NCBI GenBank assembly: GCA_964016885.1
Contig: OZ024754.1
Span: 25,048,001-25,112,000, forward strand
DNA: 64,000 bases
Source of the DNA: Eledone cirrhosa
Lineage: Eukaryota
Direction of reading: 5' to 3'
Shown here: piece after piece, positions 1,191 through 23,014 of the stretch
How positions within the stretch are numbered: position 1 is the stretch's first letter
Layout of the letters: the number at the start of each line of letters is the position of its first letter
Translations under genes and position numbers: made by a program
The notes under the pieces: model-generated
What the model was told of the DNA's origin: nothing
What the model saw: only the letters and a program-made list of their open reading frames with translations
The model's database searches: none

Positions 1191-2012
1191 AGCAGAGTAA
1201 TTTGTGATGGTCAGTAAGAATGTTTCTGATTTCGAAAATTGATATATATTTTATATTCTTAAAAAATTTTTCAGAAACACAATGTATAAAAGCATTTTTT
1301 CTAAATTCTGTGTAAAATGATCTATTTGTTAAAAACATAAAAAAATCAATTTTACAAATCAGAAGTAAATATTTCTAAAAGTATAAACAAATTGATTATT
1401 ATAGGTTTTTCACAAATTGATCATTTTACACAGTATTTAGAAAATTGTTTTTTTACAAAAAAGATTGATTTTTTTTCTTTGGAAATATATACTTTCTGAT
1501 TTTGAAAATTGATATATATTTTGTATTTTTCAAAAATGTTTCAACGTGACGAAACACAATGTATAAACGCATTCTTTTGAAAAAAAAACATTTTTTCCAA
1601 ATACTGTGTTTTACACAGCATGGTCAATTTGTTAAAAACCTAAAAAAATCAATTTTAGAAATCAGAAGTAAATATTTCGAAAAGTATAAACAAATCGATT
1701 ATTTTAGGTTTCTCACAAATTGATCATTTTATTACATATCCAGTGTTACATATCCAGTGCTTTTATCGAGAATGACACAGCTAGAGACTTATAGAATACT
1801 TAGCTGTGTACAGGAACTGGTTTGAAAGAGCGGTTGCCGGTCCGGCAGAAATTAGAAATTGGATTAAATGCTCTGAAATAGCGATATATATGTGAAGATA
1901 GACATAGAATATTCGAAAATATTCTGTATGTTTATAATAAACATTTTGAAGACCTAATCGCTATAGAATAGAATACGTCACGTATTACAATTAGATTCTC
2001 GATAAAAGCAAG

Positions 2013-2065
2013 GGAAGTAACCTACGCGTTTCATTCTTATTAGAAATCTTCAGGATTACATATCC
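2013..2065 (-). ncRNA. Type I hammerhead ribozyme of satellite B (representative copy; one per intact monomer)
   Basis: Minus strand reads gga-tat-gtaatc CTGAAGA t-ttct-aata-agaa-t GAAA cgcg TA ggttac-ttcc. It has the canonical CUGANGA/GAAA/UH core, a 6-bp stem I (one G.U), a 4-bp stem II and palindromic stem III ACGCGT. Predicted cleavage is after GUA, between 2023 and 2022. Confidence 0.88.
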
Positions 2066-2692
2066 AGTGCTTTTATCGAGAATGACACAGCTAGAGACTT
2101 TTAGAATACTTAGCTGTGTACAGGAACTGGTTTGAAAGAGCGGTTACCGGTCCGGCAGAAATTAGAAATTGGAATAAATGCTCTGAAATAGCGATATATA
2201 TGTGAAGATAGACATAGAATATTCGAAAATATTCTGTATGTTTATAATAAACATTTTGAAGACCTAATCGCTATAGAATAGAATACGTCACGTATTACAA
2301 TTAGATTCTCGATAAAAGCAAGGGAAGTAACCTACGCGTTTCATTCTTATTAGAAATCTTCAGGATTACATATCCAGTGCTTTTATCGAGAATGACACAG
2401 CTAGAGACTTATAGAATACTTAGCTGTGTACAGGAACTGGTTTGAAAGAGCGGTTGCCGGTCCGGCAGAAATTAGAAATTGGAATAAATGCTCTAAAATA
2501 GCGATATATATGTGAAGATAGACATAGAATATTCGAAAATATTCTGTATGTTTATAATAAACATTTTGAAGACCTAATCGCTATAGAATAGAATATGTCA
2601 CGTATTACAATTAGATTCTCGATAAAAGCAAGGGAAGTAACCTACGCGTTTCATTCTTATTAGAAATCTTCAGCATTACATATCCAGTGCTT

Positions 2693-18100: not shown

Positions 18101-21100
18101 TATATACATATACATATATATATATATGTATACATATATATACATATATATATATACATATACATATATATATATACATATACATATATATATATACATA
18201 TATATATATACATACATATTTATATACATATATATATATATATATATATATATACATATATATATATATACATATATATATATATATATATATATATATA
18301 CATATATATATATATATACATATATATATATATATATACATATATATATATATATGTATACAAATATATATATATATATACATATATATATATATATATA
18401 CAAATATATATATATACATATATATATATACATATATATATATAGAAATTGGATTAAATGCTCTGAAATAGCGATATATATGTGAAGATAGACATAGAAT
18501 ATTCGAAAATATTCTGTATGTTTATAATAAACATTTTGAAGACCTAATCGCTACGTATTACAATTAGATTCTCGATAAAAGCAAGGGAAGTAACCTACGC
18601 GTTTCATTCTTATTAGAAATCTTCAGGATTACATATCCAGTGCTTTTATCGAGAATGACACAGCTAGAGACTTATAGAATACTTAGCTGTGTACAGGAAC
18701 TGGTTTGAAAGAGCCGTTGCCGGTCCGGCAGAAATTAGAAATTGGATTAAATGCTCTGAAATAGCGATATATATGTGAAGATAGACATAGAATATTCGAA
18801 AACATTCTGTGTTTATAATAAACATTTTGAAGACCTAATACAATACGTCACGTATTACAATTAGATTCTCGATAAAAGCAAGGGAAGTAACCTACGAGTT
18901 TCATTCTTATTAGAAATCTTCAGGATTACATATCCAGTGCTTTTATCGAGAATGACACAGCTAGAGACTTATAAAATACTTAGCTGTGTACAGGAACTGG
19001 TTTGAAAGAGCGGTTGCCGGTCCGGCAGAAATTAGAAATTGGATTAAATGCTCTGAAATAGCGGTATATATGTGAAGATAGACATAGAATATTCGAAAAT
19101 ATTCTGTATGTTTATAATAAACATTTTGAAGACCTAATCGCTATAGAATAGAATACGTCACGTATTACAATTAGATTCTCGATAAAAGCAAGGGAAGTAA
19201 CCTACGCGTTTCATTCTTATTAGAAATCTTCAGGATTACATATCCAGTGCTTTTATATATATATACATATATATATACATATACATATATATATATATAT
19301 ATATATACATATATATATATATATACATATACATATATATATGTATACATATATATACATATATATATATACATATACATATATATATATACATATACAT
19401 ATATATATATACATATATATATATACATACATATATATATATATATATATACATATATATATATATATATATATGTATACAAATATATATATATATATAC
19501 ATATATATATATATATACAATTATATATATATACATATATATATATACATATATATATATAGAAATTGGATTAAATGCTCTGATATAGCGATATATATGT
19601 GAAGATAGACATAGAATATTCGAAAATATTCTGTATGTTTATAATAAACATTTTGAAGACCTAATCGCTATAGAATAGAATACGTCACGTATTACAATTA
19701 GATTCTCGATAAAAGCAAGTGAAGTAACCTACGCGTTTCATTCTTATTAGAAATCTTCAGGATTACATATCCAGTGCTTTTATCGAGAATGACACAGCTA
19801 GAGACCTATAGAATACTTAGCTGTGTACAGGAACTGGTTTGAAAGAGCGGTTGCCGGTCCGGCAGAAATTAGAAATTGGATTAAATGCTCTGAAATAGCG
19901 ATATATATGTGAAGATAGACATAGAATATTCGAAAATATTCTGTATGTTTATAATAAACATTTTGAAGACCTAATCGCTATAGAATAGAATACGTCACGT
20001 ATTACAATCAGATTCTCGATAAAAGCAAGGGAAGTAATCTACGCGTTTCATTCTTATTAGAAATCTTCAGTGCTTTTATCGAGAATGACACAGCTAGAGA
20101 CTTATAGAATACTTATAGAATACTTATTTGTATATATATATATATACAAATATATATATATACATATATATATATATATATACATATATATATATATAGA
20201 AATTGGATTAAATGCTCTGAAATAGCGATATATATGTGAACATAGACATAGAATATTCGAAAATATTCTGTATGTTTATAATAAACATTTTGAAGACCTA
20301 ATCGCTATAGAAGACCTATACGTCACGTATTACAATTAGATTTACATATATATATGTGTGACTGTATGTATATATATATATGTATATATATATATATATA
20401 TATATATATGTATATATATATATATATATATATATTTAAATATATATACATGCTACTGTACGTCTGTATGCATATATGTATGTACGTATACATACATACT
20501 TACATTTAAGTAAGTGCCGTACTAAGAATCAGAAATTTCATTTCATTTCATTCTATTCCATTTTAGCGTTTTCGGTGCGCCTGGCCGACTGAACTCACTC
20601 AATATGCAAATCAGGCTGCTCAGCCGTTAATTTTCATAAGGAAAGTATATACTTTCGAACGTTCAACGCTGACGATAGCTAACAAACTTGAAACTAGTAC
20701 ATCGTAACTCTGTAAGTGTTGAACAAAAAGGTGACGTGGTTGCCTTAACACCGTACGGCATAAATCAGGCTGTCCGTTTGTTTACAAACAGACAAAGCGA
20801 GCATTATAATAAATGTTCGTTAAACTGATATGTACATATATATATGTGTGCCTTTATGTATATATATATATATATACATGCTACTGTACGTCTGTATGCA
20901 TATATGTATGTACGTATACATATATACTTACATTTAAGTAAGTGCCGTACTAAGAGTGAGAAATTAAATTTCATTTCATTCTATTCCATTTTATCGTTTT
21001 CGGTGCGCCTGGCCGACTGAACTCACTCGATATGCAAATCAGGCTGCTCAGCCGTTAATTTTCATAAGGAAAGTATATAGTTTCGAACGTTCAACCATCT

Positions 21101-23014
21101 GGCAGAAGGGTATACGGTGCTGACGATAGCTAACAAGCTTGAAACTAGTACATCGATCCTGTGTCAGTGTTGAACAAAAAGTTGGCGTGGTTGCCTTAAC
21201 ACCGTTTGTTTACAAACGGACAAAGCGAGCATTATAATAGAAGTTCACTAAACTGATACGTACATATAAATATGTGTCCCTGTATGTATATATATATATA
21301 TATATATATATATATATATCTATATATATACATGTGTGTGTGCGTGTGTGTGTGTGTGTGTGTAGTAGTAGTAGTAAGGTTTTCGATATTGTGATAATGG
21401 TTAGCAGCGATGTGTGTCAAATGGCTATTAAGATAAGTGTGTGTGTGTATGTGTGTGTGTGTGTGAGTGTGTGTGTAGCAGAGTAATTTGTGATGGTCAG
21501 TAAGAATGTTTCTGATTTCGAAAATTGATATATATTTTATATTCTTAAAAAATTTTTCAGAAACACAATGTATAAAAGCATTTTTTCTAAATTCTGTGTA
21601 AAATGATCTATTTGTTAAAAACATAAAAAAATCAATTTTACAAATCAGAAGTAAATATTTCTAAAAGTATAAACAAATTGATTATTATAGGTTTTTCACA
21701 AATTGATCATTTTACACAGTATTTAGAAAATTGTTTTTTTACAAAAAAGATTGATTTTTTTTCTTTGGAAATATATACTTTCTGATTTTGAAAATTGATA
21801 TATATTTTGTATTTTTCAAAAATGTTTCAACGTGACGAAACACAATGTATAAACGCATTCTTTTGAAAAAAAAACATTTTTTCCAAATACTGTGTTTTAC
21901 ACAGCATGGTCAATTTGTTAAAAACCTAAAAAAATCAATTTTAGAAATCAGAAGTAAATATTTCGAAAAGTATAAACAAATCGATTATTTTAGGTTTCTC
22001 ACAAATTGATCATTTTATTACATATCCAGTGTTACATATTCAGTGCTTTTATCGAGAATGACACAGCTAGAGACTTATAGAATACTTAGCTGTGTACAGG
22101 AACTGGTTTGAAAGAGCGGTTGCCGGTCCGGCAGAAATTAGAAATTGGATTAAATGCTCTGAAATAGCGATATATATGTGAAGATAGACATAGAATATTC
22201 GAAAATATTCTGTATGTTTATAATAAACATTTTGAAGACCTAATCGCTATAGAATAGAATACGTCACGTATTACAATTAGATTCTCGATAAAAGCAAGGG
22301 AAGTAACCTACGCGTTTCATTCTTATTAGAAATCTTCAGGATTACATATCCAGTGCTTTTATCGAGAATGACACAGCTAGAGACTTTTAGAATACTTAGC
22401 TGTGTACAGGAACTGGTTTGAAAGAGCGGTTACCGGTTCGGCAGAAATTAGAAATCTGAAATAGCGATATATATGTGAAGATAGACATAGAATATTCGAA
22501 AATATTCTGTATGTTTATAATAAACATTTTGAAGACCTAATCGCTATAGAATAGAATACGTCACGTATTACAATTAGATTCTCGATAAAAGCAAGGGAAG
22601 TAACCTACGCGTTTCATTCTTATTAGAAATCTTCAGGATTACATATCCAGTGCTTTTATCGAGAATGACACAGCTAGAGACTTATAGAATACTTAGCTGT
22701 GTACAGGAACTGGTTTGAAAGAGCGGTTGCCGGTCCGGCAGAAATTAGAAATTGGAATAAATGCTCTAAAATAGCGATATATATGTGAAGATAGACATAG
22801 AATATTCGAAAATATATATATATATATATACATGTGTGTGTGCGTGTGTGTGTGTGTGTGTGTGTGTGTGTGTAGTAGTAGTAGTAAGGTTTTCGATGTT
22901 GTGATAATGGTTAGCAGCGATGTGTGTCAAATGGCTATTAAGATAAGTGTGTGTGTGTATGTGTGTATGTGTGTGAGTGTGTGTGTAGCAGAGTAATTTG
23001 TGATGGTCAGTAAG

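Follow-up and report, generated by a model that had tools for sequence, protein, structure and literature searches.

Why should two tandem repeats without recognisable homology outside their ribozymes carry hammerheads of the same geometry? The question is raised by the window analysed here, a stretch of 64,000 nucleotides of Eledone cirrhosa DNA in which repeat families A and B both occur, and for which an earlier note had proposed selection on RNA structure and a distinct hammerhead subtype. The A and B hammerhead sequences quoted there were both recovered letter for letter, and the claim that the families are unrelated outside the ribozyme was borne out: their local alignment score is 35 (mean 28.6 and maximum 44 for 100 shuffles) and the best blastn match covers 11-16 nt with an E value of about 0.7. 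Family B is built of 310-bp units on the minus strand and family A of units of about 430-500 bp (445-533 bp in its main array, internal (TA)n included), each with one type I hammerhead of the same geometry. In both, the units are non-coding, tandemly arranged and a few hundred bp long, with a GC content of 34-37%, below the 50% limit used for retrozymes. The span 1731-22812 given for B is correct, but it holds five clusters separated by (TA)n, A copies and AT-rich DNA rather than one continuous satellite. These contain 35 B hammerhead remnants, 20 fitting the full motif and 15 damaged. The A cores among the B clusters repeat every ~5 kb, which indicates a duplicated block; a period scan of this block returned no period, probably because the (TA)n lengths differ. 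The repeats are arranged as follows:

1731..5060 (end approximate), minus strand: B cluster 1, 310-bp units interrupted by (TA)n, 9 hammerhead remnants, 4 of them full
7101..10130 (end approximate), minus strand: B cluster 2, duplicated block, 8 remnants, 5 full
12022..15060 (end approximate), minus strand: B cluster 3, 8 remnants, 4 full
17088..20125 (end approximate), minus strand: B cluster 4, 8 remnants, 5 full
22019..22812, minus strand: B cluster 5, 2 full hammerheads
25300..44600 (ends approximate), plus strand: family A main array, cores 26107-44555
385/834, 5653/6102, 10674/11123, 15642/16091 and 20669/21120: other A cores, paired
62304, 62841 and 63912: other A cores, inverted

The motifs of both families satisfy the core CUGANGA...GAAA...UH with an open helix I, as in these two examples:

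2013..2065, minus strand: first full B hammerhead, type I, predicted cut between 2023 and 2022
2065-2063, 2062-2060 and 2059-2054, minus strand: its outer helix, UAU and helix I 5' strand
2053-2047, 2046 and 2033, minus strand: its core CUGAAGA, U10.1 and U11.1
27468..27521, plus strand: representative A type I hammerhead, ACUAGU palindrome, GUA site, predicted cut after 27511

The first B hammerhead comprises a 6-bp helix I, a UAU bulge, U10.1·U11.1 followed by 3 bp, a UAAUAA loop, the palindrome ACGCGU and a GUA site. Where a 4-bp stem II with an AAYA loop had been read, the 10.1·11.1 pair plus 3 bp and the usual 6-nt hexaloop is the better description, because family D and two metagenome examples have C...A where the closing U-A pair would stand. 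All four positions of helix II are standard pairs in family C and in the A-U subfamily of B; in A and most of B three are, and the fourth is U·U. From A9 to G12 the spacing is 14 nt, the value found in Rfam HH9, and the HH9 model aligns with a loop of 6 nt. That all helix sequences differ is true of helix I, in which 6/6 pairs differ between A and B, but not of the other helices, since two of the four helix-II pairs drawn in the earlier note and both helix-III pairs are the same. Nor is the UAU bulge fixed, being UAA in an A subfamily and in family C and UAC in family D. In Schistosoma Sm-alpha the bulge is UAC and the loop CAAAUA. Within the bulge, U8 and A9 do not vary across the 10 aligned rows, and neither do the adenines of the loop. 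The helix-I bulge very likely docks on loop II, the tertiary contact known for type I hammerheads in general (PMC4209133, available text; PMC6155905). Rfam gave no match at gathering level in the window. The bit scores with HH9 (RF02275) were 17.1 for B, 14.9 for A and 36.5 for C (E 2e-8), and the motifs of the three families are not assignable to HH9 as all fall below its gathering cut-off of 52. Matches of A to miRNA-like Rfam families were discarded as (TA)-rich noise.

Selection on RNA structure, the first half of the proposal, is supported by helix I, which is 98% paired over 10 variants of A, B and C, with 5/6 pairs changed on both sides. The covariation score was 0.588 against at most 0.222 for slid controls, a difference that comes from two independent lineages only and does not amount to a formal probability. 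Pairs were counted on the ten rows of A, B and C, leaving out D, E and F, whose 3' side was misaligned. Helix I also shows compensatory change among young subfamilies. The second half, a distinct subtype, fails on the point that was to decide it, a match to an already described family, because the geometry is that of the canonical metazoan type I form. According to the available text of PMC4209133, most metazoan hammerheads have a helix I of 6 bp, a helix II of 4 bp, a helix III of 1-2 bp and a small palindromic helix-III loop, and are active as dimers. As far as these sources are accessible, A and B share with Rfam HH9, Schistosoma Sm-alpha and the form in PMC4209133 the 6-bp helix I and the bulge followed by an outer helix, and with canonical metazoan type I motifs the 14-nt helix II/loop II, the short palindromic helix III and, presumably, the dimer mechanism. 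They differ from canonical type I in U10.1·U11.1 (A, most B, D, E), the GUA site (A, B) and the sub-cut-off Rfam scores. The hammerheads of A and B are canonical metazoan type I and not a new ribozyme type. As part of the overall explanation given below, and with the same good confidence, we attribute their common geometry to the constraint that holds for ribozymes of this class in general.

The U·U core pattern matched 44,443 times genome-wide and its reversed control 12 times, which excludes a chance origin. It could still be argued that U·U, the UAU bulge, the AAYA loop and the palindromic GUA helix together define a subtype with its own tertiary contact, since U·U is present both in A and in B with its relative D, two lineages between which no homology was detected, and also in a further family, E. 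Two metagenome contigs moreover have the same architecture with 6/6 helix-I pairs, although the search pattern did not demand pairing, and at least one published search discarded 10.1-11.1 mismatches by default, so that such motifs may be under-counted. We nevertheless regard such a subtype as improbable. Position 10.1-11.1 exchanges freely, as B cores have A-U in 3,944 cases, young arrays included, and U·U in 13,928, while family C, the sister of A, has G-C there with loop and helix III unchanged. The bulge can be UAU, UAA or UAC, the first loop base is U or C, and each of the named features is already in print for canonical metazoan type I motifs. U10.1·U11.1 itself is published (PMC3088659), and in the available text of PMC7229834 an axolotl retrozyme family of ~60,000 copies, Rtz353/HHR_Amex2, has, like A and B, U·U as the basal pair of helix II and a helix III of 2 bp. 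Neither viral contigs nor prokaryotic genomes gave any match to the architecture pattern that picked out the metagenome contigs. Among the matches listed, no third abundant family combining U·U with a 2-nt centre of helix III came up; these were 100 of the 164 matches to a pattern with C/G at 10.2, nearly all of them mutants of A or B, and 100 of the 491 to a pattern with A/C after GAAAC, comprising A mutants and small families whose helix II has other lengths.

The ribozyme itself is ordinary for animals, and the anatomy of the insertions is the more informative result. Family B forms short arrays scattered over many chromosomes with 95-100% identity. In an unselected listing of B clusters, 11/16 ran minus-then-plus and none plus-then-minus. 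Among 40 fetched B loci, 33 were head-to-head inverted arrays, mostly in (TA)n, a fraction biased upward by the choice of loci and for which 11/16 is the unselected counterpart; the first 20 were taken among the loci that best match the variant in the window, and the other 20 comprise 14 of the 16 unselected clusters and 6 two-orientation clusters. At all 31 B loci with both ends visible, one arm ended at unit position 132-139 and the other at 154-174. Left out of this count are L160, which has an assembly gap, L058 and L164, each with one end beyond the fetched stretch, and six single-arm loci, which end at 139-170. Two fixed ends, at sites of the family's own, also fit 8 of the 10 clearly inverted A loci (L016 deviates with 218/240 and L186 with 76/277; L015 and L027 are ambiguous) and 2/3 C loci. 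Family B has a tail of about 26-33 nt, family A one of about 56 nt and family C one of about 70 nt. Unit pairs were identical in 85% of cases between opposite arms of one locus and in 7% between loci, private variants are fixed in both arms at L167 and L169, and many subfamily arrays are internally uniform; L060 (B) and L176 (C) are mosaics of unit variants. One arm, at L164, has at least 15 units. Target duplications of about 40 bp at L154 and of at least 13 bp at L162 were seen by eye, where more than 4 bp is asked of a retrozyme; at most loci the flanks are pure (TA)n and the duplication is unscorable.

In the available texts, Penelope-like elements (PLEs) are recognised by inverted copies with 5' truncation, by a tail of 30-40 bp at one end and by (TA)n targets (PMC8557442), and one PLE studied in vitro cuts both strands of AT-rich DNA and uses two internal starts that delimit the tail (PMC11167929). 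The B, A and C arrays carry this signature, with an inverted 5'-truncated copy, a one-end tail and a microsatellite target, and A and B resemble the PLE pLTR/tail (PMC8557442, PMC11167929) down to the two internal start sites 3' of the hammerhead (PMC11167929). They differ, on the same partial texts, in having no coding capacity and a full-length hammerhead, which is minimal in PLEs. Two fixed ends and locus-private variants present in both arms argue for Penelope-primed reverse transcription from two internal sites on a one-unit template. For B this points to a single unit, probably a circular RNA, copied by a Penelope-like element. We found no description of head-to-head arrays with one short and one long end in the accessible text of the open-access retrozyme literature.

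Two PLEs lie in the window as neighbours of the repeats, with a partner role that is only conjectural:

57500..58855, minus strand: PLE fragment with RT and GIY-YIG
59382..61070, plus strand: PLE with an internal stop, with RT and GIY-YIG

The named relatives of the second are mostly octopod proteins. No hammerhead was detected in either PLE, and no pLTR homology to A or B was found in them or around 30 GIY-YIG loci scanned with 1.5-kb flanks (from 150 scored GIY-YIG matches and 10,596 candidates). An autonomous partner was not found at these 30 loci, the single hammerhead-like motif being an inserted A copy; sequence matches near PLE/GIY-YIG loci were inserted A or D copies or TA-rich DNA. 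Pfam returned nothing in the 598-aa frame at 54783 or in the 336-aa frame at 46119.

Circular units are predicted to fold with z values of -2.95 to -10.8, 0/40 shuffles being as stable for each of the 7 units. With folding unconstrained, the tandem dimers of 2/3 B variants are most stable as the double hammerhead (helix III probability 0.65 and 0.89). In the window's own B variant and in the two A variants tested, the double hammerhead lies 3.4-6.0 kcal/mol above a core-sequestering fold, in energies that include no tertiary term. A single 340-nt contig returns on itself by 310, a shape that tandem DNA also gives and that was not counted as evidence for a circle; its letters are the majority alleles. 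According to the accessible parts of the sources, 8/9 Xenopus retrozyme dimers were uncleaved in vitro (preprint 10.64898/2026.07.22.740005), and HHR_Amex2 cleaved to 22% in 1 h as a monomer and further as a dimer (PMC7229834).

Taken together, A and B are in all likelihood two unrelated families of animal non-LTR retrozymes with a canonical type I hammerhead, spread by PLEs via a circle. A tandem array would be transcribed, and adjacent hammerheads would join by base-pairing of the palindromic hexamers in helix III, forming a double hammerhead that cuts at GUA and releases unit-length RNA; the fold is computed and the activity suggested by newt and axolotl data. U·U would be a tolerated, probably weakening, variant of the 10.1-11.1 pair. 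Following the literature model, a host ligase would circularise the monomer, which would be stable for want of a partner hammerhead. A PLE reverse transcriptase/GIY-YIG protein would then cut both strands of a (TA)n target, and the two DNA ends would prime at two fixed points within the unit, about 139 and 165-172 nt past the cut site. Each cDNA would pass several cut sites before the 5'-truncated ends are joined, giving the head-to-head arrays with one short and one long end that are observed.

PLE priming and the family assignment can be kept without a circular template. The template would then be an uncleaved linear multimer transcript of an existing array, with a hammerhead that is slow or has another role and circles as by-products. 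For the anole PLE, hammerhead mutants had no effect on insertion in vitro, cleavage was dispensable and unprocessed RNA was the main template (PMC11167929, available text), so a circle is not required in principle. The predicted misfolds in A and in the window's B variant and the L060 and L176 mosaics agree with this, and homogeneous daughters also arise from a homogeneous source array. But the many uniform subfamily arrays and the locus-private variants fixed in all units need repeated single-unit passage, linear copying would only shorten an array unless it expanded locally, against the at least 15 units at L164, and compensatory change in helix I of young subfamilies implies continued selection on the ribozyme. 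We therefore hold a linear template to be unlikely. Far less probable still is an ordinary satellite grown locally from dead PLE termini by unequal crossing-over, with the ribozymes as fossils. The window's B copies are indeed rearranged and multiplied inside the duplicated block, with 15/35 damaged, and the preprint 10.64898/2026.07.22.740005 discusses unequal crossing-over for retrozymes in its accessible part; local crossing-over, however, fails to explain dispersed, near-identical, inverted arrays with fixed ends facing (TA)n.

Spread as retrozymes through a PLE-primed circle, the preferred reading, agrees with metazoan non-LTR retrozymes as described in the available texts of PMC7229834 and 10.64898/2026.07.22.740005, which likewise have tandem non-coding units of a few hundred bp with GC below 50%, one type I hammerhead per unit, a self-paired circular fold, tens of thousands of copies and co-occurring PLEs. 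Their helix III ends in a tetraloop, whereas A and B have a 2-nt palindromic centre, a comparison made on textual descriptions. A and B are new retrozyme families as set apart by these descriptions in the accessible open-access literature. More tentatively, a single event is possible, in which a dimeric PLE protein would cut both strands of a (TA)n target and prime the two ends at different fixed sites of one retrozyme circle, copied round repeatedly in both chromosomal directions, with U·U as a convergent damper.

Searches that reject 10.1-11.1 mismatches would overlook about 44,000 motifs in this genome. The natural U·U, A-U and G-C versions, all within a single scaffold, with helix-I variants predicted to fold better or worse, form a series on how fast the ribozyme needs to be. 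The mobility of non-LTR retrozymes, which the 2026 preprint, in its accessible part, still calls unresolved, has left its record in tens of thousands of young near-identical insertions; start sites, target and junctions are placed to within a few bases, so that a PLE protein supplied with a 310-nt circle makes a well-defined in vitro test. If the one-event model is true, rolling-circle reverse transcription of an animal retrozyme would have left its first direct footprint in a genome, in the form of the strict rule of one short and one long end at 31/31 loci and of private variants common to both arms. The model would also account for the PLE 'tail at one end', and the recurrent U·U would be a convergent damper that keeps circles intact.

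Both hammerhead motifs quoted in the earlier note, one for each of the tandem-repeat families A and B, were found in the window exactly as written there:

1731-22812, minus strand: family B, 310-bp unit, five clusters within these limits
plus strand: family A, unit of about 430-530 bp

The B clusters are interrupted by (TA)n and sit in a block repeating at a spacing of about 5 kb. They hold 35 hammerhead remnants, 20 of them complete. A and B were confirmed to be unrelated outside the ribozyme (local score of 35, against a mean of 28.6 and a maximum of 44 for 100 shuffles). Taking the B unit at 1870-2179 as reference, 6 of 8 sites at which variation is common fall inside the hammerhead of about 50 nt, all at tolerated places (N7, 10.1, loop II and a double change in helix I that preserves pairing), and B subfamilies differ chiefly within the ribozyme. 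A very AT-rich element, internally repeated and inverted and by eye unrelated to A or B, occupies 1200-1730 and 22990-25300.

The UAU bulge, the U·U at the 10.1-11.1 pair (base of helix II) and an AAYA loop had been taken to define a distinct hammerhead subtype. This is not supported, since the geometry and U·U are already published and the 10.1-11.1 pair is also A-U (in B) or G-C (in family C). Excerpts of Cervera & de la Pena 2014 (PMC4209133) describe the canonical metazoan form with a 6-bp helix I, a 4-bp helix II, contact through conserved loop bases, and a helix III of 1-2 bp that ends in a small palindromic loop, the dimer being active. Perreault et al. 2011 (PMC3088659, in part) document natural U10.1-U11.1 and note that no other mismatch is tolerated as well as U-U at this position. 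Cervera & de la Pena 2020 (PMC7229834, in part) describe an axolotl retrozyme of 350 bp whose motifs, about 60,000 in number, have U·U as the basal pair of helix II; the monomer cleaves to 22% in an hour and the dimer better. When Rfam HH9 is aligned to A, B and C, helix I again has 6 bp and helix II/loop II 14 nt, with scores below the cut-off. Nor does the AAYA reading stand: family D has C...A at the would-be closing pair, which cannot close the helix, so that loop II is the usual hexaloop. U·U is present in unrelated lineages, and the A/B motif is a recurrent variant of the canonical metazoan form. A and B themselves are new families of non-LTR retrozymes, a known kind of element, with canonical type I hammerheads.

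The proposed selection on RNA structure was borne out: helix I is 98% paired, both partners having changed in 5 of its 6 pairs, and the covariation score is 0.588 against at most 0.222 for slid controls, just two lineages being represented. In the 3.0-Gb genome, the U·U core pattern matched 44,443 times and its reversed control 12 times. Exact B cores account for 13,928 of these, and the remainder would be mostly A, judging from the matches listed. The A10.1-U11.1 subfamily of B adds 3,944 exact cores, located in young arrays; A at 10.1 of B makes up 21% of depth in sequencing run X1.

Further families were found in the same genome. Outside the ribozyme, family C (466 bp) shows homology to A (score 170, shuffle maximum 49); it has G-C at 10.1-11.1, together with the UAACAA loop and ACUAGU palindrome of A. 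Its predicted cleavage site is GUU or GUC, with about 30 units in one array (L175-L177, L081-L084; G000:C1:5738326-5752444 and others), and in L176 two helix-III variants, one with a broken palindrome, alternate irregularly. A homologue of B, family D (about 314 bp; score 183, shuffle maximum 44), combines U·U with the bulge UAC and the loop CAAMCA. It is older than B, with a longer, non-palindromic helix III (L110:2320-2773, L015:1-430, L140), and the inverted ends of its arrays face (TA)n, like those of B. Family E joins U·U to a longer helix III; its loop is UAAAAA/UAAAUA, family F has A-U, and both are full-length type I (L171-L174, L190). In L173 and L174, paired hammerhead copies lie 3.5-6.6 kb apart, as the terminal repeats (pLTRs) of an autonomous element might. 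Two metagenome contigs show the architecture of A and B with a perfect helix I (L221:49-88, L222:262-301); they carry U·U and GUA and join the helix II of A to the helix III of B, single copy per stretch.

Named relatives of a Penelope-like protein neighbouring the repeats in the window are mostly octopod; together with the richness of the DNA in (TA)n, this suggests that the host is an octopod. An autonomous partner was found neither in the window nor around 30 GIY-YIG endonuclease loci. At 45000-56600 lies an element resembling the Penelope-like type in two broken tandem copies (period about 3.57 kb, minus strand) and one inverted copy, with an RT-like YRDD motif by eye and no Pfam match; no hammerhead was found in its repeats. 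Several small, scattered hammerhead families combine U·U with a helix II of other lengths and resemble minimal Penelope-type motifs (L062, L063, L066, L071, L072, L076, L079, L041:2806, L051:242), and no Penelope-like frame was found within 1.5 kb at the loci checked.

The energy model cannot form the 2-nt helix-III loop, which is too small for it. Computed pairing of the helix-III hexamer with a second copy is worth -9.5 kcal/mol in B and -6.8 in A. When the two commonest B types tested were folded as tandem dimers without constraint, the double hammerhead came out best, with helix III probabilities of 0.65 and 0.89; competing folds are 1.8-6.0 kcal/mol lower in the computed dimers of C, of both A variants and of the B variant in the window. 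The units are predicted to be stable circles (z -2.95 to -10.8). Following the literature model (PMC7761336, in part), in which a multimer undergoes dimeric cleavage, a ligase makes the circle and multimeric cDNA is copied from it, A and B would most likely pass through the same steps. Xenopus retrozyme dimers cleaved in vitro in only 1 of 9 cases (10.64898/2026.07.22.740005, in part).

B forms short arrays scattered over many chromosomes. Among the first 100 B matches in coordinate order, clusters run minus-then-plus in 11 of 16 cases and plus-then-minus in none. Head-to-head arrays, their 3' ends outward and mostly facing (TA)n, make up 33 of 40 fetched B loci, a fraction biased upward by partial selection for match quality or two orientations, the 11/16 being unselected. 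The unit position at which the two arms join varies, and most of these inner junctions show an overlap or gap of 0-7 nt. The outer ends, counted from the predicted cut site, follow a rule: one arm stops at 132-139, its partner at 154-174, in 31/31 inverted arrays with both ends visible, expected about once in two billion if ends were independent. The short/long rule holds in 8 of 10 inverted A loci (221/277 and 251-255/301-310) and 2 of 3 of C (228-233/302-303). Penelope-like elements are characterised by copies that are inverted and 5'-truncated, by (TA)n targets and by a tail of 30-40 bp on a single end (PMC8557442, in part). An anole element of this type cleaves both strands of AT-rich DNA in vitro and begins reverse transcription at two internal sites delimiting the tail (PMC11167929, in part). 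In L049 the flank is apparently duplicated inverted, not direct, across the insertion.

Arms of B traverse as many as 15 cut sites, or more. A linear cleaved monomer would yield at most about 170 nt, and the template is therefore a circle or an uncut multimer. Among 194 full units, 85% of pairs are identical when the two units come from opposite arms of one locus and 7% when they come from different loci; in L167 and L169 both arms are fixed for private variants. Such single-unit fixation points to a circle, which we favour; an uncut linear multimer is kept as a live alternative, given that cleavage is dispensable for the anole element (PMC11167929, same part) and that L060 and L176 are mosaics. 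No paper on the short/long end pattern in retrozymes was found in the open-access literature. For these families the insertion footprint, more than the ribozyme itself, is the most informative result.
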